Shown here: positions 7,107-32,000 of the stretch, in pieces
Position numbering within the stretch: the stretch's first letter is position 1
Layout of the letters: each line of letters opens with the position of its first letter
DNA from: Akkermansia muciniphila ATCC BAA-835
Lineage (GTDB): Bacteria; Verrucomicrobiota; Verrucomicrobiia; Verrucomicrobiales; Akkermansiaceae
Direction of reading: 5' to 3'
Assembly: GCF_000020225.1 (NCBI RefSeq)
Contig: NC_010655.1
Location: forward strand, 1,590,001 to 1,622,000
Length of the DNA: 32,000 nucleotides
Made by a program: the position numbers and the translations under genes
Notes under the pieces: model-generated
Database searches by the model: none
What the model saw: only the letters and a program-made list of their open reading frames with translations
What the model was told of the DNA's origin: nothing

Positions 7107-7157
7107 GATGATGGTGGGTGCTAAGTGTTTTTGGTGGGTTGAAAAGGAATGCGGGGT

Positions 7158-7883: not shown

Positions 7884-7949
7884 AGATGCGGATTTTACGC
7901 AGACAAGATTGAAATTTCACGGGGCAAAAAGAAAGCAAAAAGAGATTCC

Positions 7950-9128: not shown

Positions 9129-9752
9129 TTACTTGCTGAGGTAGGAGGCCACGCCTTCGTGGGACGGGGTCATGGCCGCGTCTCCCTTGTGCCAGCCAAG
9201 AGGGCAGACTTCCCCGTACAGTTCGAAGTGCTGGAGGGCGTCAACCACGCGGATGGCTTCATCAATGGAGCGGCCCAGCGGGAAGTCGTTGATGAGCTGG
9301 TGGCGGACGATGCCGTCTTTGTCAATCAGGAAGAGGCCGCGGTAGGCGATCAGTTCCCCGTTGACTTCCACATTGCCGTCTTCGTCAATTTCCTCGTCTC
9401 CGGCCAGCACGCCGTAATCGGCGGAAATGGTCTTGTTGATGTCGGAAACGATGGGGTAGGTCACGCCCTGAATGCCGCCCTGGCTGCGGGGGGTGTTGAT
9501 CCAGGCCCAGTGGGAGAATTCGCTGTCTGTGGAGCAGCCGACGACGGCCACGTCACGCTTTTCGAATTCGCCCAGGGCTTCCTGGAAGCCGATCAGCTCG
9601 GTAGGGCACACGAAGGTGAAATCCTTCGGGTAGAAGAACAGGATCACGTACTTTTTGCCCTTAAACTGGTCAAGGCTGAAATCCGGTACGATGGTACCGT
9701 TTACTACTGCGTTAGCGCTGAAATGAGGTGCCGGTTTTCCTATGAGAAGCAT
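9129..9752 (-). CDS. ahpC: 2-Cys peroxiredoxin (AhpC/Tsa family)
   Basis: Contains ..KYVILFFYPKDFTFVCPTEL.. (peroxidatic Cys) and a C-terminal ..GEVCPLGW.. (resolving Cys). The start was moved to ATG 9752 (MLLIGKPAPHF) because the 21-aa upstream extension in the track does not look protein-like. Confidence 0.9.
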   Translation of the reverse strand: MLLIGKPAPHFSANAVVNGTIVPDFSLDQFKGKKYVILFFYPKDFTFVCPTELIGFQEALGEFEKRDVAVVGCSTDSEFSHWAWINTPRSQGGIQGVTYPIVSDINKTISADYGVLAGDEEIDEDGNVEVNGELIAYRGLFLIDKDGIVRHQLINDFPLGRSIDEAIRVVDALQHFELYGEVCPLGWHKGDAAMTPSHEGVASYLSK

Positions 9753-9886
9753 GGTTGTTTTTTGGTTTGGTTCTAAAAGAATGATTCCAAAAAACGGACG
9801 AAAGTCAAGCGGCAATGATATCCCGTTCGTTCCAAAAGAGCCTGTTTTCTCTTGAAAATGAAGCTTTTTTTGTCAGTATTCCCTCC

Positions 9887-19486: not shown

Positions 19487-19931
19487 TCCTTATGGCGGGG
19501 AATTTTCCGTTTTGTCCGGATACGGCCCGCCAGATGCGGCAATTCCTGGTGATGCCTCTTTTCAGGCGGCTGCCGCCGTCAGAGGTGAACTGCTGGGATG
19601 CTGGGGAATCTGGCGCGTTTTGAAAAAGCGTGGCAAAGCCGTGTTCTGTGGAGGAATAAGTGCCAGGCCTTCCGTTGAGGGATAGTTGCAGGCAAGGGAT
19701 TGCGTGATGCCCTTGATGGCGGAAGCGGCGGGAGGCAAGACAGATGTTTTTCTCCGGCGATGAATAATTTCTGGAATGTTCTTTATTTGACGGCGGTTTC
19801 CCTCTGCGGCGGCAACATGCGGATTTTCAATCCGTTTCATGTGCCGGAGTGGATGGAGGGTTGCATGTGGCAGATGTCTTGCGGCATGGAGAAATTAATC
19901 TTTATTTTTAAAGTAACTTTTTTATATTAAA

Positions 19932-19960
19932 AATATTACATTTTGTTAAAATGTGATATT
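19932..19960. promoter_or_regulatory. 13+13 nt imperfect palindrome in the AT-rich intergenic region
   Basis: AATATTACATTTT-GTT-AAAATGTGATATT has one mismatch. It lies about 245 nt upstream of the PEP-CTERM gene start, inside the sharply AT-rich stretch 19,900-20,160. Confidence 0.3.
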
Positions 19961-20202
19961 AGTGTCAAAATTGTTTCCAAAAAAACAACAGGAAATGCCC
20001 GCCACGGCAGGGAGTTTTTTTGGAGGAAAAATCATCCTGAAAACAGGGTTGCAATGATACTTAAATTATTTTTCCACAATATTTAGTATTGATTCCGGGT
20101 TGAAAATCCGTTATTGAAGCCCAAGCCTCTGTGAGGCAAGTATGCTGGTCATCTTTCCGTTAGATGATTCCGTCATTACTATTGTTATATATTCCTCTGA
20201 TA

Positions 20203-21048
20203 ATGAAGAAGACACTCATTACGCTCATTGCTCTGGCGGGAATGGCTCATGCCGATTTTGTATGGAACGGCGGTGAGAGCATTACCCAGGAGCTTTGGCA
20301 GACAGAATCCAGCTGGTCCATCACCGGTTCAGATTCCTGGCCGTCGGCAGGAACCGGTCCCGGCACGCCCAATTCCAACGCATGGTCTCTTATTTCCGTT
20401 TCCGGTGCGAGCGGCAGCATTTCCCAGCTGGAAGGCTGGACATTGAAGCTTGCCCTGCAAAACGGTGCGGATTTGACTGTAGGGAACGTAAAAAAATTCC
20501 AGGGCGGCTGTTCTATTGATATTGATCAATCATCTACGCTGACCTTCAACAGTTATAACGGCGGCAACGATGGTGGGCGCACGACGTTGAACAACTACGG
20601 CACGTTTAACCTGGCTTATACCAAGAGCCAGGGCGGGGAAGGATTTTACGCCAATTTGGGAGCCACGGGCATCATGAACCTTACTTCCTCCAACGGTAAT
20701 TCATACAATGCCAAGATAGCAAGTCTGACTGCTACGCTGACTCTTGACGGAGGCACCGCCAGCGGAGTAACTGCCAGCGGTCATCAAATCCTGACCAGGA
20801 ACCTGGTTACCCTGGGAAGCAATATGTCTTTTGACGGCACGAACACTTCCCTGGAAATGCTCAGCGGCATTGCAGGCATTGATACCCTTACTGCTGTGGA
20901 CGATTTGACTAATGCCGAAGTAGGTTCTTATATGGTTACCAAGAATGAGAACGGGTACAGCGTTTCCTATGTGGTTCCCGAACCCGCAGCGGCTTCCCTG
21001 AGCCTGCTGGGCCTGGCTGGTCTGGCGATGCGCCGCCGCCGCAAGTAA
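20203..21048 (+). CDS. PEP-CTERM sorting-domain secreted protein
   Basis: Has the signal peptide MKKTLITLIALAGMAHA and the C-terminal VPEPAAASLSLLGLAGLAMRRRRK (PEP motif + TM + Arg cluster). The start was moved to ATG 20203. Confidence 0.85.
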   Translation: MKKTLITLIALAGMAHADFVWNGGESITQELWQTESSWSITGSDSWPSAGTGPGTPNSNAWSLISVSGASGSISQLEGWTLKLALQNGADLTVGNVKKFQGGCSIDIDQSSTLTFNSYNGGNDGGRTTLNNYGTFNLAYTKSQGGEGFYANLGATGIMNLTSSNGNSYNAKIASLTATLTLDGGTASGVTASGHQILTRNLVTLGSNMSFDGTNTSLEMLSGIAGIDTLTAVDDLTNAEVGSYMVTKNENGYSVSYVVPEPAAASLSLLGLAGLAMRRRRK

Positions 21049-21078
21049 CGGCAAACTTGGATTCCTGTTTCCATTCAG

Positions 21079-21112
21079 CTCCCTTCCGCGGTTAACGGAA
21101 GGGAGTTTTTTA
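21079..21112 (+). terminator. Rho-independent terminator of the PEP-CTERM gene
   Basis: CTCCCTTCCG-cggttaa-CGGAAGGGAG is followed by TTTTTTATT. The stem is 10 bp and perfect. Confidence 0.8.
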
Positions 21113-21586
21113 TTATTTCCCGGAAAGGCGGCGTATTTCCGGAAGATATCCGGGCGGAACGGGAGAGAGAAGCCGGGAGAGTGCGCATGCATGGGCCTAT
21201 TCTTCCCCGGAGGATGCCGTAACCGGATTAGCCCCGGCTATTGTTCTGCAACGCTGCAAGAGAGGAAAGGGGCCTGTTATTGCCGGGAGTAACCACTTTC
21301 TTTCAAAAAAAGTGGTAGGCCCGGTAGGAATTAATATGTTTATTTAGAATAATATATTATAAAATGTGTTCATTATTGTGATAATGTTGAGCACACGGAA
21401 GGATGAAAAATAGTCTGAAATAGGCCGAAAAAGGGAGTCTCCTTGAGCGTAGAGGCTCGAACTGGGTCATGGGTCATCTGTGTTTTTGCATGCATGGAGT
21501 TGAAAAATTTCATGCAACTATTCCAACAATGCAACGGGAAAAGTATAGGTTCAAGTAAAAGCCTGCGTGTCTGCCGTAGAGGAAAC

Positions 21587-21608
21587 GCAACGGGGCCGCA
21601 TTTGTATG
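21587..21608 (+). promoter_or_regulatory. Conserved start-proximal motif, copy A (GCAACG-N6-CATTTGT-ATG)
   Basis: GCAACG GGGCCG CATTTGT ATG, where the ATG is the gpW-like start at 21606. Confidence 0.6.
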
Positions 21609-21884
21609 TTACGGATTGCAAAAGCTCTTTATGCTTGGGGGGCGGTGGACGCTGATGAACGCATACCCCGTTTGAAAGAAGCTTTGGATAAGGCTGTTGA
21701 AGATATCATTGAAAACCAGGGAAAGGAAATCACTCAAGGGAACGTGGGGGACAGTTCATTCCAGTTCGCGCCAGGTTCCATGACTATTGATTTATGGGTG
21801 GAAGCTTTGGGGATTGCTATTCGTTCTCTTGAGCATGGCCGGTTTGAAGGAGGGAATAACGTTGCAAGGATAGTGTTTCGATGA
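21606..21884 (+). CDS. Putative head-tail joining protein (lambda gpW-like by position and size)
   Basis: A 92-aa protein immediately upstream of the portal gene and coupled to it by an ATGA overlap at 21881-21884. The helix-rich ..RLKEALDKAVEDIIENQGKEITQGNVGDSSFQF..SMTIDLWVEALGIAIRSLE loosely resembles gpW. The start is chosen at the conserved motif. Confidence 0.4.
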   Translation: MLRIAKALYAWGAVDADERIPRLKEALDKAVEDIIENQGKEITQGNVGDSSFQFAPGSMTIDLWVEALGIAIRSLEHGRFEGGNNVARIVFR

Positions 21885-23281
21885 AAGCAGGAAATGTCCA
21901 GATTTTGGATCAGTTCGGCCGGCCGTTTTCAAGCCGCCCCATTTACAAGAGCGGCAGTTATGATGACGGGCTGCAGCGGCTTCCGAATTATCTCAAAGAA
22001 CCGGAACAGCTTTCCGGGAACCTTACCCGGAAGAACCTTATTTCCGCATCCCGTCTGTTGTACAAAAATAATGGCGTTGTAAAAGGCGCCGTGAACATGA
22101 AGGCTGAATACTCTATCGGGAAAGCGTTTCTGTTCAAATCTCTGTGCAAGAATCCGGAAGTTGCGGCGAAGTATGACGAGTACATCAAGGCGTTTTACAA
22201 AGTTGCATGCGTGAACGGAAAGAATTTTCACTCGCTCCTGTATCTGATCTCCACCGCCATCGACATTGATGGGGATTGCTTTGTAATGTTGACGGAAAGC
22301 AAGACGGGGTTTCCTCAACTGCAATTTATCCGGGCAAACCGTGTTTGCTCTCCTAAAAATGGCCTTATTGACTCCGGAAAATATAAGGGATTGAACGTGC
22401 TGCACGGCGTCATAACCAATCGCATGGGACGTGAAATCGCTTATTGGCTGGACGGCGACGAACCAGGGGGAGGTGAAATCATCCCGGCATCCTCAATACT
22501 TCATATCGTGGATGACGACTTTCTTTCCACCTGCCGGGGCGAGCCTCTCTTCTCTCATGGCCTCAAGGAATTCCGATACATTGATGATATCAATACAGCC
22601 GAACTTGGGGCCATGAAGATTGCGTCACAAATTGCCCTGGTAAAAAAGAACGAAACGGGAGAAGTTGACATAACGCAGGCTTATGACAAACCGTCCAATA
22701 ATGGGGAGGTGCTCATCCGGAATACTGGTGATAAGCAAATTGTATTTTTGAAGTCTGAAGATTCCCTTGACTCCCTGAAGATTGAGCGCCCCTCTCCGAA
22801 CTACATGAGTTTTTCAGAACGGCTTCTGAAGGGCGTTTTATCCGGGGTGGGCGTGCCCTATGATATCGTGGTCAATCCGGACTCAAGCGGCGTTGGGAAC
22901 AGAATGTCTCTGTCCAAATTTGACAATACCACGCGAGATCGGGCCACGCTGCTTGAAGATGCTGCCAGACTGCTTGTACAGTATATCTTGGCCGTAGGTA
23001 TCCAGCGGGAGGACATCCCGCACGCGGAAGGCTGGTGGAACATGATGTTCAGCCGCGCCAAGCGTCCAAGCGTAGACATGGGCCGCGACTCCAACAGCCA
23101 GTTGAAAGAGTACAATGCCGGTATTAAAAACCTCACAGAAATCTGTGAGGAAAACGGAACGCAGGTTGAGGACCATTTGAGAATACGTGCCAGGGAAGCC
23201 GCCATTGCGGAGAAGTTGCGCCGTGAAGCTGAAGCAGAATTTGGAGTAGAAATCTCTCCGGATTATATCAGGAAGTTTTAA
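21881..23281 (+). CDS. Phage portal protein (lambda-B-like family)
   Basis: 466 aa, located between a gpW-like gene and an S49 prohead protease exactly as in the lambda W-B-C order. The acidic/coiled C-terminal region is typical of portals. Confidence 0.8.
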   Translation: MKAGNVQILDQFGRPFSSRPIYKSGSYDDGLQRLPNYLKEPEQLSGNLTRKNLISASRLLYKNNGVVKGAVNMKAEYSIGKAFLFKSLCKNPEVAAKYDEYIKAFYKVACVNGKNFHSLLYLISTAIDIDGDCFVMLTESKTGFPQLQFIRANRVCSPKNGLIDSGKYKGLNVLHGVITNRMGREIAYWLDGDEPGGGEIIPASSILHIVDDDFLSTCRGEPLFSHGLKEFRYIDDINTAELGAMKIASQIALVKKNETGEVDITQAYDKPSNNGEVLIRNTGDKQIVFLKSEDSLDSLKIERPSPNYMSFSERLLKGVLSGVGVPYDIVVNPDSSGVGNRMSLSKFDNTTRDRATLLEDAARLLVQYILAVGIQREDIPHAEGWWNMMFSRAKRPSVDMGRDSNSQLKEYNAGIKNLTEICEENGTQVEDHLRIRAREAAIAEKLRREAEAEFGVEISPDYIRKF

Positions 23282-23285
23282 TGTG

Positions 23286-24029
23286 ATGAAACCGTTATAT
23301 TGTGAAGAAACTGCATGGCTGGCGAAGATTCGCCAGCGGAAGAGCCTGGAACTGAAAGCCGCAGGGAATCCGGATTTTGACTTCTCATTTTTCATCCAGA
23401 CACGCCAAAAAGCGCGGGTAATTGGGTCATCCTTGGTGATTGACGTGATTGGGCCTCTATACGGTGACGGCGTGCCGTTGAATGAAGTCCTGGGCGGCAC
23501 GAATTATCAGTCCATCGTGAAGGAAATAAAGGGTGCTGCCGGGAACATTGATGAAGTTGTTTTCATTTTTGACTCTCCGGGAGGTGACGTGCAAGGCTGT
23601 CATGAAACAGCAGAATTGATTAAATCTCTGCCAGTGGAAACAGTGGCTTATGTCAAAGGCATGTGCTGCTCTGCCGCCTATTATTTGGCTTCCGCTTGTG
23701 ATCAAGTGGTCGTGACGGAAACGGCGCTGGTTGGCAGTATCGGGACGGTCATCAGCCTGTGGAATGCCAAGAGTGAGGAAATATTGACCATCACGAATGA
23801 TGATGCTGTTTTCAAGCATCCGGAAACCCCGATGAATACGGAGGCAATCGCCTATTACAGGGATTTGTGCAACAAGATCGCCGGGCGGTTTCAGGAATTT
23901 GTGGCTTCAGGACGTCCCGGTTTATCTGCGGATGCGTTTTCCGGCAAGGTTTTTGTGGCGGAAGATGCTGTTTCCCTGGGCCTGATTGATGATGTAATAC
24001 CCTGGGTCGATTTTCCTGGAGTGGTATGA
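23286..24029 (+). CDS. S49 (SppA/ClpP-like) prohead maturation protease
   Basis: VVFIFDSPGGDVQGCHETAELIKSL...YVKGMCCSAAYYLASACDQVVVTETALVGSIG is the S49 serine-protease core. ATG 23286 is preferred over GTG 23283. Confidence 0.9.
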   Translation: MKPLYCEETAWLAKIRQRKSLELKAAGNPDFDFSFFIQTRQKARVIGSSLVIDVIGPLYGDGVPLNEVLGGTNYQSIVKEIKGAAGNIDEVVFIFDSPGGDVQGCHETAELIKSLPVETVAYVKGMCCSAAYYLASACDQVVVTETALVGSIGTVISLWNAKSEEILTITNDDAVFKHPETPMNTEAIAYYRDLCNKIAGRFQEFVASGRPGLSADAFSGKVFVAEDAVSLGLIDDVIPWVDFPGVV

Positions 24030-24033
24030 AAAC

Positions 24034-24056
24034 GCAACGGTTTTGTCATAAGTATG
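24034..24056 (+). promoter_or_regulatory. Degenerate copy D of the start-proximal motif (GCAACG-N7-CATAAGT-ATG)
   Basis: AAACGCAACGG matches copy A over 11 nt. The spacer is one nt longer and the proximal box matches at 5 of 7 positions. The ATG is the scaffold-like gene start at 24054. Confidence 0.35.
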
Positions 24057-24443
24057 GCACTATTCAAGTCTGATCAAAATATCGTTGATGCGCTCAAACA
24101 AGAGCTTGCCCCTTTTGGGGCAGAAATGAAGAATGGGATTAAAGAAATCCAATCCTCTATTAAAGATCTTTGTGAGCGTGTCGAAGCCCTGGAAAAGGAG
24201 AATGTCAAGCTCCACGCATCCGTTGCCCTCAAGAAAAACCAGCTTGAGGAAGAAGCCGATACGAAGGCGAGCCAGAAGGCCGCTGAAATGGTGGCTGGTA
24301 TGGGACATAAAGCCGTAGTGGATAAGCCGGAAGACGGCGAAGAAAACTCCTCTATCCTGGAGCAGTACTCAGCTCTTTCCGGAGAGGAACAGAGGAAGTT
24401 TTATGCTGCTCATAAGGATGAGTTGGCAAAACTTTGCAAGTAA
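24054..24443 (+). CDS. Putative capsid scaffolding protein
   Basis: A 129-aa acidic protein predicted to form a coiled coil (..IKDLCERVEALEKENVKLHASVALKKNQLEEEADTKASQKAAE..), located between the protease and capsid genes. Confidence 0.5.
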   Translation: MALFKSDQNIVDALKQELAPFGAEMKNGIKEIQSSIKDLCERVEALEKENVKLHASVALKKNQLEEEADTKASQKAAEMVAGMGHKAVVDKPEDGEENSSILEQYSALSGEEQRKFYAAHKDELAKLCK

Positions 24444-24483
24444 TCAATAACAATATTAACGATTAAAACCATTTTTTAGAATT

Positions 24484-25320
24484 ATGGCTCTTTCAGATGC
24501 TCACAAGATAGTTATTCACAGTGAAGTCATTTCTTCTTTGCGTAAAGCTCTGGCTCCGCTGGAATACTTTAAGAAGGATTTCCGAATGGAGTATGCTTCT
24601 GAGATTAAATTCAAGAATGTAAAAGCCGCCGGAAATATTACTGAAAACCCTTCTGATTACCAGACGGATAAAGAAAATGAAGGGGATTTAATCCCCCTGT
24701 CACTTACTGAACTCCATCAACCCTGGCGCATTACGCCCGCCGAAAAGCGGAATGGGTGGAAATTGGCGGATTTGGCAAAAACGAACGCTACGGCGTTTGC
24801 CAATAACTTGAACAAGCGCATACTTTCCCTTGTTACAGCGGATGGAGCCAAGGTTATCGGTACGGCTGACGCTTTCACAAAGCGTAAGTGCATCAACCTC
24901 AGCGGAGACGTAGAATCCGACGAACCTCGCCTTTTGCTGGCGCCTGATTATTACCGAGCTATTCTTCCGGAAAATACGACGGAATTCCGGCTTGATGGAG
25001 GCGCTTACGGATTTGATTCCATCCATAAGGTCAAGACCTCCGTCTTTGCTGATAACGTAGTCGGTATTTCCTATGATGGAGGTGCGGTTGCTGTTGGTTC
25101 CGCCCTTCCGGAGATCGACGAGGCTTTCAAGGATGATATCCATTCCGAGGTCATTCAGGTGGAAGGTCTTGCTGGTCTTTCTATCCTGTTTTGCACTTGG
25201 CTTGATTTGAAAACTCGCGCGGAATGGGCTTCTCTGGGCCTGATGTTCGGGGCAAAGATTCTCGAGGCTGACAAGGTGAAAGGATACGTTGCCGCTGCTG
25301 TTGCGTCAGATGAAGGCTGA
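24484..25320 (+). CDS. Putative major capsid protein
   Basis: The call rests on position (after protease and scaffold, before a strong terminator) and on its clean, well-expressed-looking ORF of 278 aa. I recognise no family motif by eye. Confidence 0.55.
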   Translation: MALSDAHKIVIHSEVISSLRKALAPLEYFKKDFRMEYASEIKFKNVKAAGNITENPSDYQTDKENEGDLIPLSLTELHQPWRITPAEKRNGWKLADLAKTNATAFANNLNKRILSLVTADGAKVIGTADAFTKRKCINLSGDVESDEPRLLLAPDYYRAILPENTTEFRLDGGAYGFDSIHKVKTSVFADNVVGISYDGGAVAVGSALPEIDEAFKDDIHSEVIQVEGLAGLSILFCTWLDLKTRAEWASLGLMFGAKILEADKVKGYVAAAVASDEG

Positions 25321-25347
25321 TTTTCTTTGTATTCATGCTGGTGTTTA

Positions 25348-25377
25348 CCGTCCCGGATTTGTCCGGGGCGGTTTTTT
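25348..25377 (+). terminator. Rho-independent terminator after the capsid gene
   Basis: CCGTCCCGGA-tttg-TCCGGGGCGG (10 bp with one G.U pair) is followed by TTTTTT. Confidence 0.8.
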
Positions 25378-25379
25378 GT

Positions 25380-25401
25380 GCAACGCACCGCCATTTGTAT
25401 G
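25380..25401 (+). promoter_or_regulatory. Conserved start-proximal motif, copy B
   Basis: GCAACG CACCGC CATTTGT ATG begins 3 nt after the terminator T-run. The ATG is at 25399. Confidence 0.6.
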
Positions 25402-25698
25402 AGATTCACAGAGGCTGCCAACGTTGCTCACCGGAGTATTAACCGGGTATTACCACAGACAAAAATTGTCTACAATGGCCAGACGTACCGGGGGTACATG
25501 AATTCCCGGGACATAACCATTGAACGCCAGGAAGGAGGGTATTGCAACCAGCGTGACCGCATCATTCACATCCAGACAGGGGACGCTTTTCAGATTGGGG
25601 GGCGTGTGGGGTGCGAAGGGATGAAATTCAAGATTACCGCCGTCACAAGTAATTGTGTTTACAAGGTATTAACTTTATCAGCCGATTTATATGAGTAG
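25399..25698 (+). CDS. Putative head-tail connector/adaptor protein
   Basis: A 99-aa beta-rich small protein, the first gene after the capsid terminator. The start is set at the conserved motif, because the tracked start at 25327 would run through the terminator. Confidence 0.45.
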   Translation: MRFTEAANVAHRSINRVLPQTKIVYNGQTYRGYMNSRDITIERQEGGYCNQRDRIIHIQTGDAFQIGGRVGCEGMKFKITAVTSNCVYKVLTLSADLYE

Positions 25699-26446
25699 CA
25701 TGGAAGTCCGGATAGATGTGAAAGGAATGGATAGCGCCTTGAAAAAGGTGAAAACGAATATTGAGCGTTTCGGAAATTTATATACTACGTTGCTTGCCTA
25801 CAATACCGCTAGCGGGATGTGCTTTAACGCCACTCTTCCGCTGGGAAAAAATCGCAAATCAAAGGTTTCCGGAAGAAAATCCGGGGAAGGGTCTGTCAGC
25901 CGGGACGTTTCCCGCGCCGGGCGCGGTGTTGGATCGTTTATCAACCAACTAAAGGAAAGAGACATAAAAAGGGCAAGACAGGTTGCCGGCATGCTTTCTT
26001 TAAAGGCAGATCCTCAAAAGGCTGCCGAAGTGGCGACGGATGTTTTTGGGCAGGTTGTGCGCTTTTATCAGAGTTACAGCCCGGAATTTCATACTTCTGC
26101 CCGGAAGAATGGTCGTGTGTCCTCCTTTACTGGGAATGTCGTGCTCAATAGAAAGAGTACGGAGAACTATAAGAATAAGGTATTCAAGCATATCGGGAAG
26201 GCAAAATCAGGGTGGCTGATTAATACTTCTTATGGATGGGCTGCTCGTGCGCCTCAATGGATTGCGCGGCATGGGAAAAACGGGACAATCAAGAAGTTGC
26301 CTGATGGAAGTGTCGAAATAGAAAATAATCTGTCTTATGCCTCGGAGGCTATGCTTAAGGCGCTTGTACCGTTTGTCCAAACCAAGGCATTGCAGGCCAC
26401 GAACTTGAAATTGCACCATGAGTGGCAAAGGAGAAACAGGGTATGA
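25691..26446 (+). CDS. Hypothetical phage neck/head-completion protein (N-terminus HK97-gp10-like)
   Basis: It overlaps the upstream gene by 8 nt. The N-terminus MEVRIDVKGMDSALKKVKTNIERFGN resembles the gp10-family opening, and a basic low-complexity insert follows (KNRKSKVSGRKSGEG..). Confidence 0.4.
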   Translation: MSSMEVRIDVKGMDSALKKVKTNIERFGNLYTTLLAYNTASGMCFNATLPLGKNRKSKVSGRKSGEGSVSRDVSRAGRGVGSFINQLKERDIKRARQVAGMLSLKADPQKAAEVATDVFGQVVRFYQSYSPEFHTSARKNGRVSSFTGNVVLNRKSTENYKNKVFKHIGKAKSGWLINTSYGWAARAPQWIARHGKNGTIKKLPDGSVEIENNLSYASEAMLKALVPFVQTKALQATNLKLHHEWQRRNRV

Positions 26447-26778
26447 TTATGGATCGTGTCATCAGTCATTTGAGGAATTCCGGGTTTACTGTCTACAAAG
26501 CCGGGAATAACAGCGACATAGAACGGAAGCCCTGCGTCGTCATAGGCATGGTCGGGTATACTCAGCCTTGGACGCCTTTGCCCGCCAGGGAATATACGCT
26601 TTCCATGATTCTGATCAATAACCGGTCTGATTCGGAAATGGAAAGAACCCTTGTGGAGACGTTATTCCGGCTGGATTGTGGTGAACAGTGTGATTTTTTC
26701 AATATTACGGATTATTCGGCTACGCTGGATGATGATGACTGGGTAACTACCTGGACATTGCGTTATATTGAAAGATAG
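26443..26778 (+). CDS. Putative tail-completion/neck protein (DUF3168-like)
   Basis: An ATGA overlap joins it to the previous gene. MIMDRVISHLRNSGFTVYKAGN....KPCVVIGMVG resembles the DUF3168 opening. 111 aa. Confidence 0.4.
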   Translation: MIMDRVISHLRNSGFTVYKAGNNSDIERKPCVVIGMVGYTQPWTPLPAREYTLSMILINNRSDSEMERTLVETLFRLDCGEQCDFFNITDYSATLDDDDWVTTWTLRYIER

Positions 26779-26945
26779 TTTTATACTATTTTGATAATCA
26801 ATGGTTGTACTTCTTGTACCCCTTCATATCCTTTATTTCCGGCTTGGTTATCGTGCCGTTTTAGTCTTTTTACTCACGTTCTGAATGTGGGTTGAACTAC
26901 GCGTTAAACGTGTTGATGGGGAGCGAGAAATTTTTCAAAGTTTTC

Positions 26946-26967
26946 ATGAACTGAATATTCAGTTCAT
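26946..26967. promoter_or_regulatory. Perfect 22-bp palindrome upstream of the amidase gene (candidate operator)
   Basis: ATGAACTGAAT|ATTCAGTTCAT ends 31 nt before ATG 26999, within a 220-nt non-coding gap. Confidence 0.5.
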
Positions 26968-26998
26968 TCAACAATAAACGATTAGAAAGCATAACATT

Positions 26999-27937
26999 AT
27001 GGCTATATCAACAATACCATTCCACCCGCTCGACGCCGAGAATAATCCTCGTTATAAAGTGAAGAAAAAGGACGCACCCAAGATCGTCTGGCATGAGACG
27101 GAAGAAACCGGGGCGCATGATTGGGAAGGATACATTCGTATTCCCTTCGATAAGGAATGTGCCTTTACCATTCAGATGGACGACAACGGTTACTTGGAAA
27201 TCGACAACCAGAAAGTGGTGGAACTCAACGGTAGCAACTCATCCAAGAAAGCGGAGGGTAAGAAGGAGCTCAAGCAAGGTTACCATTATGTCAAGCTCCA
27301 TCATGAAAATTTGAAGGTTCCGGATGCAATTGCTCCCTATCCCAATGCGGAAGAATTCGTTCCTCAAATGGATGGTGTTGACCTGGAACTTTGGGAAATT
27401 GATGCTCCCACGAATCTCTGGAAGATGGAGGATGCCCAAAAACTGCTGAAATGTTACAATGTGGTGGATTATGTCACTATGCCTGATCCTGGACAGGTTT
27501 GGGCTTATATTGGGGGGTGGCTCTACCAGGCTCACTTAAAGGAAATTAAGGACAATGTTCCGGAACAATCGCGCAATTATTATAACAGTTGTGCCTTGCG
27601 AATGAGTATTGCTCTAAGTTCCTTCGGAAAGGATTTGAAGGGTGAAGCAGGAGCGGAGCTCATAGGAGACAAGGCGAACGCTGATACAATAGGAGGTAAA
27701 ACCCATGTCATCACCCGTGCACGGGATATGGCTGCTTATGTGCAAAAACTCTTGGGCGACCCTGATTATCCCGACGCCCAGGATAAAGGTTATTGCAGCC
27801 CGCAGCCGGGCGACATCATTGTGTTTGCAGGAAATGGCCATGTAGGAATGTGTCCGGGAGACAACATATTCATTGGCAGTTTTCTGACTGGCCCTATTTG
27901 GTTAATCAATCGGTCCACATTGAAAGACGCTGAATAA
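26999..27937 (+). CDS. PA14-like domain + Tae4-like (T6SS amidase effector 4 family) peptidoglycan amidase
   Basis: The N-terminal half, WEGYIRIPFDKECAFTIQMDDNGYLEIDNQKVVEL...LKQGYHYVKLHHEN, has a PA14-type pattern. The C-terminal half has YYNSCALRMSIALSSFG (compare Tae4 ..QNACPIRMSYVLNATGF..), ITRARDMAAYVQKLLGDPD (compare IYRVNDMIDYLTHTMGKPD) and GDIIVFAGNGHVGMCPGDN (candidate catalytic His/Asp). No signal peptide is present. Confidence 0.6.
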   Translation: MAISTIPFHPLDAENNPRYKVKKKDAPKIVWHETEETGAHDWEGYIRIPFDKECAFTIQMDDNGYLEIDNQKVVELNGSNSSKKAEGKKELKQGYHYVKLHHENLKVPDAIAPYPNAEEFVPQMDGVDLELWEIDAPTNLWKMEDAQKLLKCYNVVDYVTMPDPGQVWAYIGGWLYQAHLKEIKDNVPEQSRNYYNSCALRMSIALSSFGKDLKGEAGAELIGDKANADTIGGKTHVITRARDMAAYVQKLLGDPDYPDAQDKGYCSPQPGDIIVFAGNGHVGMCPGDNIFIGSFLTGPIWLINRSTLKDAE

Positions 27938-27956
27938 TTCATAAACTTCTCTTTCA

Positions 27957-27993
27957 CGGGGCGAATGCTGTTAGAGCGTTCGCCCCGTTTTTT
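27957..27993 (+). terminator. Rho-independent terminator between the amidase gene and the downstream gene
   Basis: CGGGGCGAA-(13-nt loop with inner GCT/AGC pairing)-TTCGCCCCG is followed by TTTTTT, starting 20 nt after the stop codon. Confidence 0.8.
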
Positions 27994-28006
27994 GAACATA
28001 ATGGGG

Positions 28007-28020
28007 AAAAAATAATATAT
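28007..28020 (+). promoter_or_regulatory. A6-TAATATAT element immediately upstream of ATG 28027 (candidate -10 / A-rich leader)
   Basis: AAAAAATAATATAT shares 13 nt with 29211-29223. A TTGAAC -35-like hexamer lies at 27992-27997. Confidence 0.3.
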
Positions 28021-28026
28021 ACTTTT

Positions 28027-28593
28027 ATGGATAAAACATCTCTCTTTTGCTGTTTGCTTTCCGGTCTGATGGCGTTATCGGTTAGTGCTACGTCTCCTGT
28101 TGCCACGCAGGCTGAAGTGTCCGGGGATATTTCTCTCCGTGGTATAGCCAGACTCCTGCAGAAAAGCGATATTGTCTTAGCGGTTGTCATTTATAAGACG
28201 GTGGAAACTACCCAGGAGACGATATTCTACGCCCGCGTCATTCAGTCCCTCCGGGGAGACATTCCTGTAGAAGCCCTGGTTCAGTGGAGAGGGGCGGCGA
28301 ATAATCTCCCTGTGGGCGGCTCTCCTAAAACAGAACTGTATTCGAGTTGTAATCTGAGTTATGTCCTTGCGACTTCAAAGGAGGTAGAAAAACTGCTGGG
28401 TACGCCGGAAGATTTTATTCCGGCTGACAGCATTTATGGACTGGCTTCCTACAATTTGGGAAATGACGTCAGTTTTTTCCCGATGACGGAGAGTAACTCA
28501 GGCCGCGCCATGAAAAAGCTCCTCCGTATCGAACCGGCCAAAATTACTGAAGAATCGGAGGCGGCCCGCTTCCAGCCGGAATCCGGCGAGTAA
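28027..28593 (+). CDS. Secreted (Sec signal peptide) hypothetical protein; candidate periplasmic immunity partner of the amidase
   Basis: MDKTSLFCCLLSGLMALSVSA|TSP is a signal peptide. The protein is 188 aa with no recognisable family. It lies directly downstream of the Tae4-like gene and has its own terminator. Confidence 0.45.
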   Translation: MDKTSLFCCLLSGLMALSVSATSPVATQAEVSGDISLRGIARLLQKSDIVLAVVIYKTVETTQETIFYARVIQSLRGDIPVEALVQWRGAANNLPVGGSPKTELYSSCNLSYVLATSKEVEKLLGTPEDFIPADSIYGLASYNLGNDVSFFPMTESNSGRAMKKLLRIEPAKITEESEAARFQPESGE

Positions 28594-28632
28594 TCCGGTT
28601 TTCTCTCTACGCTTCGATTTTATTTGAATCAT

Positions 28633-28664
28633 CCCCGTTCATGAAATATGAGCGGGGCTTTTTT
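28633..28664 (+). terminator. Rho-independent terminator after the secreted-protein gene
   Basis: CCCCGTTCAT-gaaat-ATGAGCGGGG (10 bp with one G.U pair) is followed by CTTTTTT. A second, weaker hairpin with a T-run follows at 28668-28692. Confidence 0.75.
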
Positions 28665-28692
28665 GTGGAGGAGGTTCATTCTCCTGTTTTTT

Positions 28693-28702
28693 GGGGGGGG
28701 GG
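28693..28702. repeat. G10 homopolymer tract
   Basis: Ten consecutive G residues lie between the double terminator and motif copy C, 27 nt upstream of ATG 28729. Confidence 0.9.
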
Positions 28703-28709
28703 CGGAAGC

Positions 28710-28731
28710 GCAACGCACGGCCATTTGTATG
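28710..28731 (+). promoter_or_regulatory. Conserved start-proximal motif, copy C
   Basis: GCAACG CACGGC CATTTGT ATG is identical to copy B at 21 of 22 positions. The ATG is at 28729. Confidence 0.6.
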
Positions 28732-29166
28732 GCAAAAGCATCTGATTTTATCCAGCACGGAGAAGGTATTTTCGGGCTCAATTATTCCGGTGAACAGGAA
28801 TTCGGAGCAATCATTTCTTCCGTTAGTTATTCATGGTCGGCCAAAGGTGATGTAGAACTTACTGGGGACAAGGGATTGATGGAGGGGAACACGCTTTATG
28901 ATTCCCGCTGTGAAATTACCTGGGAAGCCTATATGAGAAAGACTGGCACGGAAGTGCCCCACATTGGCGATATTGTTGATGTGCATGCTGATGTCTTGAA
29001 TCTCTGCATCAAGAATTCCGGTGAAGAAATTCCGGCAAAGGTGACTAAGGCCATTTGCAAGAGCGTGGATGTGAAGATGGAGACGCAGAATTATAGGAGT
29101 TTCACGGTTAAAGCTACTTATGGTCCTAATATCGTTGCTCTGAATCCGGATATTGCTTCCGAATGA
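28729..29166 (+). CDS. Putative major tail (tube) protein
   Basis: A 145-aa beta-rich protein upstream of the chaperone pair and tape measure gene. The start is set at the motif, because the tracked start at 28648 lies inside the terminator hairpin. Confidence 0.45.
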   Translation: MAKASDFIQHGEGIFGLNYSGEQEFGAIISSVSYSWSAKGDVELTGDKGLMEGNTLYDSRCEITWEAYMRKTGTEVPHIGDIVDVHADVLNLCIKNSGEEIPAKVTKAICKSVDVKMETQNYRSFTVKATYGPNIVALNPDIASE

Positions 29167-29210
29167 CAAATTTAAGGGGGGTGAGCTTCACGCCTCCCCT
29201 CCCCTCAAAC

Positions 29211-29225
29211 AAAAAATAATATAAT
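29211..29225 (+). promoter_or_regulatory. A6-TAATATAAT element (contains TATAAT) upstream of ATG 29235
   Basis: AAAAAATAATATAAT contains a TATAAT hexamer at 29220-29225, 9 nt before the start codon. Confidence 0.3.
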
Positions 29226-29234
29226 AGACAGAAC

Positions 29235-29609
29235 ATGAATAATATAATCAATATTGAAGATATTAATCTCGCCAGCGCTTTGCTCGCTGCTACAGCCCCT
29301 ATCGCCAAGCGGGCGGAGATAATCATTACAGACCGGGGAGAACGGAAGGTTTTTTATTTTACGGATACCCTGGAGACGCGGGAAATGATCAGGAAGTGGA
29401 AGGATCCTGATTTTGTGAAGAACAATCCGGAAGATCCGTTTGCCCTGGTCAAGGCGGCCTTTGATTGCCGCCGCGGCATTCTGTCTGGCCTTTCCCGATT
29501 CCGGAAAATAGCCTGCATCCGTTCCAGGGATGGGGAGAAGGTCGCCTTAATTCCGGAGAATTGTCCGGAAGAGGATAAAATGGAAATCATGGGGCGTTTG
29601 AACTCTTGA
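29235..29609 (+). CDS. Small hypothetical protein (DUF5659-like opening)
   Basis: NIEDINLASALLAATAPIAKRAEIIITDRGERKVFYFTDT resembles the (D)LxLAxxL..-F-F pattern of DUF5659 proteins as I remember it. It is inserted between the tail tube and chaperone genes. Confidence 0.3.
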   Translation: MNNIINIEDINLASALLAATAPIAKRAEIIITDRGERKVFYFTDTLETREMIRKWKDPDFVKNNPEDPFALVKAAFDCRRGILSGLSRFRKIACIRSRDGEKVALIPENCPEEDKMEIMGRLNS

Positions 29610-29619
29610 GTGTTGGAAT

Positions 29620-30003
29620 ATGATGAAAGATGAGGAAAAAGCCTTGAAGCTCCGTCCCCTGTCTATTGGGAGCATGGAGCTGATGCAGCGGTTTAACTGT
29701 GGATTCATGGACGGGAGCATGAATCTGGGCTGCATTGTGGAATATATTTATATTCATACGGAGGATATTGAAACGCTTGAGTCCATGAGCCTTGAAGCGT
29801 TTAAGGAAGCCGTCCGAAGATTCAAATATGAATTAAGCCCTGATGAAATGCAGCGTATTTCCTCCCTGGTAGGCCTGCAGGCGCAGCAGGTGGATGAAGC
29901 CGCTTTTACTGTTGAGGACTCCAAAAAAAAACGGGAGGGGACAGGCCGGATTATTTTATCCAGGTGGTTTGGGCGATTGCGTCGAAAACGGGCTATCCCT
30001 TAA
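29620..30003 (+). CDS. Tail assembly chaperone (lambda gpG analogue), zero-frame product
   Basis: An acidic 127-aa ORF immediately upstream of the tape measure gene. It contains the slippery A9 run near its 3' end. Confidence 0.6.
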   Translation: MMKDEEKALKLRPLSIGSMELMQRFNCGFMDGSMNLGCIVEYIYIHTEDIETLESMSLEAFKEAVRRFKYELSPDEMQRISSLVGLQAQQVDEAAFTVEDSKKKREGTGRIILSRWFGRLRRKRAIP

Positions 30004-30170
30004 ATTACATTAAATATGATATTCCCTACAGCATGATCCTGCAGTTCCTGATGAGCGAGTGTGTTGCAAATGGCGTAAGCTGTTATTACACCCATGCCCG
30101 GAAGGTGGATCATGCTGATTTGGAGCGTTTGGACGCTCTGTTTAACAAGCCTGTTGATGTTGAAGAATGA
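29620..30170 (+). CDS. Tail assembly chaperone frameshift fusion (gpGT analogue), about 183 aa via -1 PRF at 29923-29931
   Basis: The G / G-T arrangement upstream of the tape measure gene is conserved in long-tailed phages. The -1 extension ..TGGDRPDYFIQVVWAIASKTGYPLNYIKYDIPYSMILQFLM.. looks protein-like. Confidence 0.5.
29923..29931 (+). other. Slippery A9 run (A AAA AAA C), a candidate programmed -1 ribosomal frameshift site
   Basis: The zero frame reads tcc aaa aaa aaa cgg. The -1 frame is open from 29916 through 30167 with its stop at 30168-30170, and the tape measure ATG at 30167 overlaps that stop (ATGA). Confidence 0.55.
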
Positions 30171-32000
30171 GTGCCGTAAAATTTAAATTCTCCGGAGATT
30201 CTTCGGAATTGCTCAAAGAACTGGAGAACATTAAGGAAAAGATCCGCGAGACCTCGGGGCAGGCGGCAAATATGCGTGTTGCTAAGGGCGGTAAGGCTGA
30301 CGTAGAGGGATTGGGGGCGTCTTTCAAGAAGTTATTGCCTGCAATTACGGCTGCCGGCGCTGCCGCGGCAGGATTTGGGGCGGCATGGAGCGCTGTCAAA
30401 ACAGGAATCAATGACGCGATGGATGATGAATACATGGCGGTACAGTTATCTTCCTATACAAAAAATATTGAGTCGGCCAGGGATTTGCAGTCCCAGCTTG
30501 ATCATCTGGCGGCAAATGGCGTTGTTAGCCTGGACGATTTAGGGAAAGCCGCTCAAAACCTGGCCATGCATTTTCGGACAAATAATACGGCTATCATGAG
30601 CTGGTCGAAAGTTTTTGCAGATATTGCCGCGTCCGGAAAGATTTCCGCAGAGCAGCTTTCCAATTCATGGGCGAAGGTGATGGCAAACGGATTTGCCGAT
30701 TCACGGGCCATTAACCAGCTGCAGAATCAGGGCATTCCCATTATCAAGGCTTTGGCGGAAGAAATGGGCGTGGCGGAAAGACAGGTTGTTGAGCTCGCCA
30801 AGAAGCGGGAAATTTCCGCTGACCAGTACGTGAACGCCATGAAGAAAATGCGTGACGCGGAATTTTCCGGGAAGAATTCCGCATTGTCTAATACGACCAT
30901 CGGTTCATGGGAAACGCTCAAGGCTACTTTTGAAAATACTATGGGGGATCTGGTGAGTGATAATGTCTCAAAAACGGCCGGGCTTTTTCAGTACCTGACA
31001 TCTCGAATAGAAGAGGCCTCCGAGGTTGGTTTTCATTTTTACGCCATGAATCAAGAGAATTTATCTCTTTTTGAGATCATGTTATCTAGAGTTCAGGCTG
31101 GTTTTGCTGGTCTTACAGGGATTTTTGTGAATGGAAAGTGGGAAAATCCATATCAAGAGGGGACGTATGACCAAAGGAAAAATCTGATTGATTACGGTTC
31201 ATCTGATAAAATCAGGGAAGAAATATCCAAGGCCAAAAGCAATGATGAAATTGAGCTTGTTCAAGAGCGGCTAGGTAAAGAATGGGATGATCTTATTAAA
31301 CAACGCGGCATCCGTCAGAATTATATTGCAAACGATGGCGTAAACAGTGCAGAAGCAAAGGCGGAAATTGAGGCTATTGACAGGATGATTGCCGCCCGTC
31401 AAGAACTTCTTGAGGAAATAGAAGAAGGAGTTTTGTGGAGGGAGAATGAGAAGCAATCAATTAAAGAGATCGTAGAAAACAATCAGAAGGAAGCGAGGGC
31501 TGCCGCTGATTTGAACGATGCAATGGAGAAGCTTAATGAAACAAGAGATAAAGCAAATAAGCAAAAGCCTAAAAAGAAACAGGATGATTTATCAGTCGAT
31601 GGTCTAAAGAAACAGCTTGAAGACGAATTAGCCGCTGTTCAACATATTTCCTTGGATGATTTGGAAGAGGAATTGAAATTACTTGAAAAAGAATTCCAAG
31701 CAGGAGCTTTAGATTTTAATGCAGCCACGAGATATGAAAAGCTGTTATCCGTGGCTGACTCCATCCGGGAAATTAACGCTCAATTAAATAAAAAGAACAG
31801 AGCCGTTAATGATGTGAGACAGGATGCGCAGGAAGAAATTGCCATCATGCAGGCCGAACTTGACGGCGAAAAGGAAAAGCGGCGCGAACTGGAAAAGCAG
31901 CGGGATGTGCGGAAGGAAATGCAATCCCTCGTGAAAAGCGGCATGAATGAGCATGACGCCCTGGGGCTGGCGGAACAGAAGGTTTCCCTGACATACAAGA
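30167..32000 (+). CDS. Tail tape measure protein (3' end beyond the window)
   Basis: My own translation from ATG 30167 stays open to nt 32000 (more than 611 aa). It includes a TMP N-terminal-domain-like segment (..ISAEQLSNSWAKVMANGFADSRAINQLQNQGIPIIKALAEEMGVAERQVVELAKKREISADQYVNAMKKM..) and a long coiled-coil region rich in E, K and Q. Confidence 0.85.
   Translation, partial: MSAVKFKFSGDSSELLKELENIKEKIRETSGQAANMRVAKGGKADVEGLGASFKKLLPAITAAGAAAAGFGAAWSAVKTGINDAMDDEYMAVQLSSYTKNIESARDLQSQLDHLAANGVVSLDDLGKAAQNLAMHFRTNNTAIMSWSKVFADIAASGKISAEQLSNSWAKVMANGFADSRAINQLQNQGIPIIKALAEEMGVAERQVVELAKKREISADQYVNAMKKMRDAEFSGKNSALSNTTIGSWETLKATFENTMGDLVSDNVSKTAGLFQYLTSRIEEASEVGFHFYAMNQENLSLFEIMLSRVQAGFAGLTGIFVNGKWENPYQEGTYDQRKNLIDYGSSDKIREEISKAKSNDEIELVQERLGKEWDDLIKQRGIRQNYIANDGVNSAEAKAEIEAIDRMIAARQELLEEIEEGVLWRENEKQSIKEIVENNQKEARAAADLNDAMEKLNETRDKANKQKPKKKQDDLSVDGLKKQLEDELAAVQHISLDDLEEELKLLEKEFQAGALDFNAATRYEKLLSVADSIREINAQLNKKNRAVNDVRQDAQEEIAIMQAELDGEKEKRRELEKQRDVRKEMQSLVKSGMNEHDALGLAEQKVSLTYK

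Follow-up and report, generated by a model that had tools for sequence, protein, structure and literature searches.

A two-gene cassette was analyzed in a 32,000-nucleotide stretch of the Akkermansia muciniphila ATCC BAA-835 genome (contig NC_010655.1, positions 1,590,001 to 1,622,000), which is hereafter called the window and to which all coordinates refer unless another locus is named. The cassette lies in the head-tail gene cluster of a prophage-like element. Its first gene (26999..27937, plus strand) encodes a 312-aa protein that combines a PA14-like domain with a Tae4-family amidase domain, and the second (28027..28593, plus strand) encodes a 188-aa protein with a Sec-type signal peptide, here termed SecP. 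With moderate confidence, we interpret the pair as a polymorphic peptidoglycan-amidase toxin and its periplasmic immunity protein, riding as a moron in a prophage. The original prediction, made from the letters of the window, had called both open reading frames (ORFs) at these coordinates and had proposed an effector/immunity module. Both the gene calls and the proposal are supported here, the latter by a variable amidase domain attached to a conserved N-terminus, partner types matched to amidase classes, arrays of partners, frameshifted amidases next to intact partners, amidase relatives in Rhs and eCIS_core proteins, and a SecP relative encoded beside one Rhs-like module. None of the outcomes named beforehand as refuting the original prediction was observed.

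Domains of the amidase and its secreted partner

The amidase domain occupies residues 140-312 of the first protein (27416..27934) and begins right past a conserved WEIDAP junction motif. Three motifs that had been read by eye, NSCALRMS, DMAAYVQKLLGDPD, and GNGHVG..GD, are all present in the translation. The Pfam family Tae4 (PF14113) matches residues 194-259 with a score of 29.4 bits, above the gathering threshold of 27 (E = 9.1e-7), and PA14 (PF07691) matches with 24.9 bits, the gathering threshold being 24. Since both scores are just above threshold, each domain was checked further by itself.

A profile of the amidase domain (A3), built from the C-terminal domains of 15 homologs, was searched against PDB sequences and retrieved seven significant sequences (3e-7 to 8e-4), all of which are Tae4-family effectors. 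The best match is Ssp1 (4bi3, 3e-7); the Salmonella and Enterobacter Tae4 proteins (4jur, 4hff, 4j30, and 4hfk) match at approximately 3e-4, and the Agrobacterium Tae4 (6ijf) at 8e-4. The Ssp1 chain with the C50A substitution scores approximately 6 bits less than the wild type (27.7 vs. 33.5 bits), which places Cys198 (codon 27590..27592) on the catalytic C50 of Ssp1. Cys198 is the predicted catalytic nucleophile and does not vary among 29 homologs or within the alignment extending to canonical Tae4 domains. As the Pfam and PDB alignments end short of the histidine, the Akkermansia classes were aligned to full-model Tae4 proteins such as P0203 (E = 7.7e-20, model positions 1-125). The C-A-x-R-x-S and G-H motifs are invariant across the Akkermansia classes and the full-model Tae4 proteins. 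His281 (codon 27839..27841), the predicted catalytic base, is invariant in the same 29 homologs and aligns with the G-H motif. A weak CHAP match was additionally obtained with Pfam for residues 263-284. The original assignment of a Tae4-like amidase is thus upheld by a Pfam match above threshold, by PDB matches to Tae4 proteins exclusively, and by a cysteine and a histidine that are invariant up to canonical Tae4. Of its further label "type VI secretion system (T6SS)-type," the homology to the Tae4 family stands, and nothing beyond homology was found for the remainder.

The PA14-like domain, a beta-sandwich (approximately residues 17-139; 27047..27415), follows a strongly conserved N-terminal peptide of 16 residues (MAISTxPFHPLDAENN). 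In addition to the Pfam match, phmmer matched the PA14 protein 6qdi at 1.3e-4, and Foldseek aligned the N-terminal half with the PA14 lectin domains of Epa1, Flo1, and MpAFP with a probability of 1.0, as well as with PA14 domains of phage tail proteins. The PA14 DD motif (D61, D62) is invariant across the homologs. The domain had been named from its appearance in the translation, and the Pfam score and the Foldseek probability agree with that reading. The AlphaFold model of the whole amidase has a mean predicted local distance difference test (pLDDT) score of 91.6 and a predicted template modeling (pTM) score of 0.81. No signal peptide is present, as had been stated: the maximal 15-residue Kyte-Doolittle mean across the first 30 residues is 0.18.

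Forty-seven homologs of the amidase were found, and every named one belongs to Akkermansia or Akkermansiaceae; for both cassette proteins, homologs are restricted to Akkermansia and its relatives. The names that NCBI gives to the amidase homologs include "T6SS effector amidase Tae4 family protein" and "PA14 domain-containing protein," so that the domain call itself is not new. Neither the amidase nor the partner matches a family in PHROGs, PADLOC, or NCBIfam.

The export signal is carried by the partner. Its Sec-type signal peptide (approximately residues 1-22; 28027..28092) had been noticed in the original reading and is confirmed by a hydrophobic segment at residues 5-19, where the Kyte-Doolittle maximum of 2.13 is reached, and by a cleavage site of the SVSA type, read by eye. 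Sixty-two partner homologs were found, and N-terminal hydrophobic segments are retained in all homologs compared. No classical lipobox is present. The partner has no Pfam match either, and SecP is the founding member of an unannotated family. All partners form one diverged superfamily whose members, joined stepwise by pairwise BLASTP, are SecP type 1, SecP type 2, a type named protA, and the paralogs of two loci, L020 and L021. The structural model of SecP is weak; it shows a core rich in beta-strands and no coiled coil. A spanin or a lipoprotein was ruled out for the partner, which lacks a lipobox, a coiled coil, and a C-terminal membrane segment. A fold match to NTR/C345C-like domains was discarded as meaningless (best E-value 0.18).

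Carriage, polymorphism, and relatives of the pair

The position of the pair was compared across 17 related elements, which were obtained by scanning viral contigs with the protein encoded at the tail tube position. Two structural genes flank the cassette: the third of three head-tail genes on the left (26422..26778, plus strand, 118 aa) and the putative tail tube gene on the right (28726..29166, plus strand, 146 aa), both placed by synteny in these elements. The cassette is present in four of the 17 elements and absent from the other 13, in which the last head-tail gene leads to the tube gene across a spacer of 350-465 bp. By alignment, the cassette stands in for approximately 340-460 bp of alternative sequence at empty sites. 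In five of the 13 elements without the cassette (L025-L029), the structural proteins on either side are for the most part 94-100% identical to those of the window. Between filled and empty sites, the left side is conserved through ...GATAATCAATG, ending at 26803, and the right side picks up at CGGAAGCGCAACGC (28703); the cassette therefore spans approximately 26804..28702 on the plus strand. The original prediction had placed an inserted moron at the junction of the tail-completion and tube genes and had called for a comparison of related prophages with and without it. The four filled and 13 empty sites bear out the insertion, and the optional presence, the conserved junctions, and a terminator behind each gene bear out the moron status.

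Intrinsic terminators were detected 3' of the amidase gene (27956..27994, with narrower limits of 27956-27988; 14-bp stem with 9 G-C pairs, followed by a T-run) and 3' of the partner gene (28633..28665, with narrower limits of 28633-28657; 11-bp stem and T-run), and a further hairpin lies at 28667-28685. Promoter-like sites show no excess over shuffled sequence (8 vs. 7.8); a TTGAAC-N18-TATATA element ahead of the partner gene was spotted by eye only. In two elements (L001 and L002), a Septu defense system is encoded on the minus strand, behind the last head-tail gene and ahead of the amidase gene (L001 5493-7591; PtuA of 463 aa, E = 1.3e-83, and PtuB of 236 aa, E = 2.1e-41), which makes the junction a hotspot for accessory genes. 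An optional insert between conserved structural genes, with its own terminators and at a site shared with Septu, resembles known phage morons and hotspots such as lambda bor and lom and the P2/P4 defense hotspots; unlike these, the cargo here is a predicted toxin/immunity pair and not a defense or virulence gene.

The right edge of the cassette is formed by a T6G10 homopolymer tract (28687..28702), located just past the hairpin and 24 bp upstream of the tube-position gene. The length of this T(n)G(n) tract varies between otherwise near-identical elements (T6G8, T6G9, and T6G10 in L064-L069; T8G8 in L001; T7G7 in L003; T6G6 in L007). The aligned elements without the cassette have no T/G run at the right edge. 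The tract could be a phase-variable tuner of read-through into the tail genes, or its variation could be homopolymer sequencing noise.

The pair was found in several settings. In two loci of the same phage (L003 and L007), the backbone is approximately 99% identical and the amidase allele is 57% identical to that of the window. Two others (L004 and L010) carry the pair in unrelated prophage backbones, between a gene that reads as HD-domain-like from its sequence and a gene for a 701-aa fiber-like protein, and in L015 the pair is located at a prophage end. At a chromosomal site, the pair is flanked by an M23 peptidase gene on one side and by rpsA, prfB, and trmD on the other (L062, A. muciniphila LN831787.1, and L018). 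Two cassettes of different class can share a genome, as in MAG11749 (L013 and L018) and A. glycaniphila (L017 and L020). The exact amidase sequence of the window is indexed in 3852 blocks of public assemblies. The earlier description of the pair as a phage insertion consequently holds in part: the pair is optional in the window's element, but it is specific neither to this phage nor to this position. Its occurrence in prophages with other backbones and at a site on the chromosome argues against a role as virion cargo or virion lysin.

The two halves of the amidase differ in conservation. Among 29 homologs, pairwise identity averages 0.76 over residues 1-30, 0.68 over the PA14 part, and 0.49 over the amidase part; the N-domain is more similar than the C-domain in 90% of the 406 pairs, and some pairs are 81-83% identical in the former and 43-47% identical in the latter. 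The WEIDAP motif at the junction is invariant or nearly so. A signal-peptide protein of the partner superfamily is encoded 3' of the amidase in all 19 distinct loci of the Akkermansia lineage; in 18 of them the partner is of the SecP or protA type, and the two more distant tandem paralogs occur in L020. Every amidase class comes with an adjacent partner type of its own: SecP1 for class I, protA for class II, a SecP1 variant for class III, and SecP2 for class IV. Two tandem paralogs lie beside the L020 amidase, and four paralogs flank the L021 amidase, of which at least three resemble protA. The number of paralogs per locus varies between one and four, or two-domain fusions occur, and in some loci extra copies lie past the adjacent partner.

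In L021 (8431-12733, uncultured Verrucomicrobiales), the amidase homolog is 28% identical, and the four paralogs, which start with MKKL[VI]L, lie on both sides of it on the opposite strand. Downstream of class II amidases, a protA-SecP fusion ORF was observed (L003 6396-7535, L007, and L016 approximately 9700-10830), in which the protA-type domain keeps its signal peptide and the SecP-type domain has none of its own.

Inactivation affects the amidase and spares the partner. Clusters of frameshifted amidases are common (P0033 with 335 members, P0039 with 99 members, and the copy in the L062 genome at 7000-8000), whereas the partner clusters are intact (P0054 with 172 members and P0055 with 447 members). 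Loss of the toxin with retention of the antidote is expected for toxin/immunity systems, and SecP is probably the antidote of the amidase. Many A. muciniphila genomes have a frameshifted amidase at the chromosomal site, with differing lesions, next to an intact partner gene. Short homologs were considered as alternative C-terminal toxins and ruled out, as P0033, P0039, and P0005 are frameshift products. The 410-aa protein P0008, encoded on a 1978-bp contig, joins a GH2-type N-terminus to the amidase C-domain of the window exactly at LWEIDAP, and this C-domain is identical to that of the window where aligned. Either a chimeric assembly or a genuine domain swap could account for the protein, which was set aside as evidence.

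More remote relatives of the amidase domain were collected by a profile search of 1.84 billion representatives, which yielded 231 proteins at E <= 0.001. Some are fused to RHS repeats (P0123, 2157 aa; P0173, 3088 aa; and P0141, a 487-aa Prosthecobacter protein) and others to the eCIS_core domain (P0176, P0168, and P0198), whose Pfam name refers to extracellular contractile injection systems (eCIS). In every listed match that has the whole amidase domain, the domain is located at or near the C-terminus. On these sequence matches, the amidase domain is a shared mobile toxin module. One further locus, L063, encodes a module that opens with an end motif like that of the Rhs core, ...DPIEEQGGVNLYGFV...DRLGL (read from the sequence; no RHS Pfam match is on record). 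Its amidase is 39% identical to the C-domain of the window (E = 6e-35), the match starting at residue 144. The gene directly 3' of this module encodes a signal-peptide protein of 160 aa, which is related to SecP by an hhalign match to the SecP profile (probability 84%, E = 7.6e-6) and by a BLASTP match at 1e-4 over DIVLAVVIYKT...YARVIQSLRGD. According to the Rhs paradigm, the gene 3' of a C-terminal toxin is its immunity gene. Read with this paradigm, the SecP relative of L063 provides the strongest indirect support for an immunity role of SecP.

On this reading, the pair belongs to the polymorphic toxin/immunity systems and is not a new category. It shares with Rhs and other polymorphic toxins a conserved N-terminal part followed by a variable C-terminal toxin past a junction motif (WEIDAP here), an immunity-like gene directly downstream, and orphan extras in some loci, and the same amidase domain ends true Rhs proteins. 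In contrast to these systems, no RHS/YD repeats, PAAR, or other known trafficking domain is present, the constant part is a 140-aa PA14 module with a single toxin type, and the variants are classes within a single enzyme family, not unrelated toxins.

Proposed mode of action and delivery, and competing explanations

According to the mechanism that we propose, the 312-aa protein is a peptidoglycan amidase whose papain-like domain would employ Cys198 and His281 and, by homology, would cut the gamma-D-glutamyl-meso-diaminopimelic acid bond of the cell-wall peptide stem. The PA14 sugar-binding domain would probably hold the enzyme on a glycan of the cell envelope or wall. Lacking an export signal, the amidase would be made in the cytoplasm, while the Sec pathway would send the partner to the periplasm, where it would bind and block the matching amidase class and so protect carriers of the cassette. 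Cells without the matching partner would lyse once the amidase entered the periplasm, and lysogens would gain over related Akkermansia strains.

For delivery, our preferred guess is a T6SS-independent release by prophage-induced lysis and/or in membrane vesicles, by analogy to pesticin-Pim and colicin M-Cmi. Such a release would fit both the lysis genes encoded in cis and the vesicle inhibition reported between Akkermansia clades (PMC11923206). These clades exclude each other, one clade typically dominating a person's gut, and the driver of the exclusion is an open question; vesicles of a given clade inhibit a second one, which loses structural integrity, an effect that the authors tentatively ascribe to Rhs proteins (PMC11923206). 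In its fullest form, the proposal is that Akkermansia possesses a T6SS-independent, wall-degrading bacteriocin system, in which the amidase, set free from a fraction of the cells by prophage-induced lysis or in vesicles, docks via PA14 on a surface glycan of sister strains, enters their periplasm, and lyses those without a class-matched partner of the SecP family, and in which prophage-spread repertoires of amidase classes and of cognate and orphan immunity genes help to decide the winning clade. We put this forward tentatively and consider it doubtful as a whole; if true, it would explain both the dominance of a single clade and the vesicle-mediated inhibition (PMC11923206).

The analogy to these bacteriocins, which attack the cell wall or its synthesis, is a functional one. 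Like pesticin and colicin M, the amidase would be a signal-less toxin that acts in the periplasm and is countered by a periplasm-exposed immunity protein; an N-terminal targeting domain would precede a C-terminal enzyme, and release would depend on lysis of the producer, for which prophage lysis genes are available in cis. There is no relationship in sequence or fold, however, and no TonB box or receptor-translocation domain was identified in the amidase.

Several observations weigh against our interpretation of the pair. The amidase has no visible export route, since it lacks a signal peptide, and from the outside it would have to cross the outer membrane, for which no translocation motif was identified. 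The N-terminal module is known only joined to this amidase domain (47 homologs), each homolog that retains the module also having the amidase or a frameshifted remnant of it. The PA14 domain may for this reason simply bind the substrate or the cell envelope, and a substrate-binding role would fit at least as well as a role in delivery. The Pfam scores are marginal, and the Tae4 match spans model positions 1-58 of 125, i.e., the first half. The column after the histidine that is the candidate for the third member of the triad contains D, N, H, or Q and is not invariant. In the fold search, the top 50 matches (PDB; BFVD) are all to the PA14 domain and none to the Tae4 domain. The partner is unlike the known Tae4 immunity families (Tai4 and Rap1a), with no Pfam match, and its model is poor (mean pLDDT 56) and without a structural match. 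Finally, linked genes co-vary by shared recombination history, so that the match between amidase classes and partner types is no proof of interaction.

The alternative that survives best assigns the amidase to an injection machine, as an effector carried by a T6SS, an eCIS, or a phage-like particle, with the partner still acting as a periplasmic immunity protein. Its attraction lies in a domain family that is defined by T6SS effectors, in close relatives with an eCIS_core domain or RHS repeats, and in the absence of a signal peptide, as in many T6SS cargo effectors; moreover, the gene adjoins tail genes in the window. The similarity to the Tae4-Tai4 and Ssp1-Rap1a pairs of Salmonella, Enterobacter, Serratia, and Agrobacterium includes a homologous catalytic domain with the same cysteine and G-H motifs, an effector without a signal peptide, and a Sec-exported protein encoded downstream. 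The known effectors are, however, single-domain proteins of approximately 160-175 aa delivered by a T6SS, whereas here a PA14 domain is added, no T6SS is in evidence, the partner matches no Pfam family including Tai4, and the locus is carried by a prophage as a moron. The scans of window and locus proteins (whole genomes were not scanned) gave no T6SS or contractile-sheath gene, which agrees with the earlier remark that no T6SS gene is visible in the window. The usual loading domains are absent as well, Pfam giving PA14 and Tae4 only. Chromosomal copies, non-equivalent positions in other prophages, and the 13 of 17 sister elements without the cassette indicate that the pair is not tied to the structure of a particle. 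We regard carriage by an injection machine as unlikely.

Improbable to a higher degree is superinfection exclusion of the type of the T4 gp5 lysozyme and Spackle, in which the amidase would be a wall-piercing virion enzyme and the lysogen's partner would inhibit the enzyme of incoming phages. As in T4, a phage would encode both a wall hydrolase and a periplasmic protein predicted to neutralize it, and the location of the gene within the structural module, the periplasmic partner, and the terminator between the genes, which would permit their separate expression, are all compatible with this. The amidase classes with matched partners and extra partner copies also form the pattern of an arms race between phages, and PA14 domains are known in phage tail and host-specificity proteins. 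Yet gp5 is an essential part of the virion, whereas the enzyme discussed here is missing from 13 of the 17 sister elements, including the five with mostly 94-100% identical structural genes, and cannot be a required virion part. The pair also resides outside phages, at a chromosomal housekeeping site, and at varied positions in unrelated prophages; the relatives of the domain are bacterial toxins and not virion proteins, and a tblastn search with the amidase gave no match in 50,697 phage records.

An auxiliary lysis module is similarly improbable. The amidase would then be a second modular endolysin, with a partner that regulates or assists lysis; it is a prophage-encoded wall hydrolase without a signal peptide, its N-terminal binding and C-terminal catalytic layout resembles that of some modular endolysins of Gram-negative phages, and read-through of the late operon would express it at lysis. 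An ordinary holin-endolysin-spanin cassette, which the original prediction had named as a refuting outcome, is contradicted by the data: the cassette is optional and encodes no holin and no membrane protein. The partner does not resemble spanins either: it has one N-terminal signal peptide and a core rich in beta-strands, and it lacks both a lipobox and a C-terminal membrane segment. A separate endolysin candidate is retained in the backbone (193 aa; PG_binding_3, 3.7e-8; PHROG 315 endolysin, 5.3e-14); it is preceded by a gene for an 84-aa membrane protein and was found in nine of the 11 sister loci reaching far enough downstream (77-100% identity), with or without the cassette. Chromosomal copies, partner arrays, and Rhs-linked relatives would not be expected of a lysis gene.

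The remaining alternative, a housekeeping or niche enzyme of the cytoplasm or the surface that serves wall-peptide recycling or acts on glycan-linked substrates, with an unrelated or substrate-binding partner, would be in keeping with one copy at a conserved chromosomal site amid housekeeping genes, a PA14 module found solely with this amidase domain, and no identified delivery system, but is very improbable given the presence/absence polymorphism, an element G+C content of approximately 0.47 against 0.58 in the host, the fast swapping of catalytic-domain classes and frequent frameshifts, the strict linkage to diversifying secreted paralogs, and the homology to Rhs and eCIS_core-linked toxin domains.

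The host element and implications for Akkermansia

The window consists of two parts. Bases 1 to approximately 19,500 are Akkermansia chromosome with a G+C content of approximately 0.58, encoding an M16 peptidase, an SNF-type symporter, MsrB, and a major facilitator superfamily (MFS) transporter. From approximately 20 kb, the G+C content drops to approximately 0.47 and a lambda-like head-tail module starts. A gene for a PEP-CTERM-sorted protein (20164-21048) separates the host MFS gene from the first phage-like gene, is kept at the same place in sister genomes (96% identical in L027), and may be part of the element. The module comprises a small gene at the gpW position (21567-21884), a lambda-family portal (21881-23281; Pfam, 1.2e-29), an S49 head-maturation protease (23283-24029; PHROG, 2.2e-44), a scaffold-like gene, a capsid-position gene, and the three head-tail genes ending at 26778. 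A strong intrinsic terminator (25347-25372; 11-bp stem with 8 G-C pairs) was observed directly past the capsid-position gene, within the structural operon. The left flanking protein and the tube candidate have no family match in Pfam, PHROG, or NCBIfam, and because of this the names "tail completion" and "tube" reflect gene order only. Past the tube candidate come a gene for a 124-aa protein, a pair of chaperone-like ORFs that overlap (29620-30003 and 29964-30170), and, from 30167 on, the tape measure gene, which runs off the window; in sister loci, the tape measure carries the TMP_3 Pfam family. No Rfam family and no tRNA was found in the window.

Past the tail genes, the element has a gene for a small terminase (PHROG, 1.4e-15) and one for a GpA-type large terminase (Pfam, 1e-30). 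Across the window (19500-32000), L044, and L064-L069, the order is gpW-position gene, portal, protease, capsid, tail, terminases, a 517-aa protein, the 84-aa protein, the endolysin candidate, and HicAB, so that the terminase genes are placed after the tail genes. The HicA/HicB-like toxin-antitoxin pair (L044 15225-15955), named by eye, lies just beyond the endolysin candidate, and a low-G+C block with apparent Vsr-like and Dcm-like genes, likewise named by eye, occupies L044 16145-20869. The element was observed at one chromosomal site, after the DinB-type polymerase, MFS, and PEP-CTERM genes, in the six places listed, which include two complete genomes. Over approximately 24 kb, no gene for an integrase, a repressor, or replication was found in the element, which may be a defective or domesticated element resembling a gene transfer agent, rather than a complete temperate phage.

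We know of no T6SS described from Akkermansia, and the literature searched contains no statement on such a system in this genus. Nor did the literature yield anything that links Akkermansia with Tae4 or Tae4 with carriage by prophages, or anything on the PA14-Tae4 architecture or its carriage as a swappable prophage moron, on the SecP/protA immunity-like superfamily, or on class polymorphism in a lineage without a known T6SS. The pair extends the Tae4 amidase family beyond type VI secretion, with a new N-terminal module (PA14) and a new immunity-like family, and identifies a junction between prophage structural genes as a hotspot for both competition cargo and anti-phage defense cargo (Septu).

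A. muciniphila is a leading candidate for next-generation probiotics. Because the cassette is common, polymorphic, mobile with prophages, and bears the full genetic signature of a toxin/immunity system, it is a concrete candidate for a determinant of strain-level antagonism. It could serve as a weapon in the competition of strain against strain in the gut, and it could help to predict the engraftment of probiotic strains.

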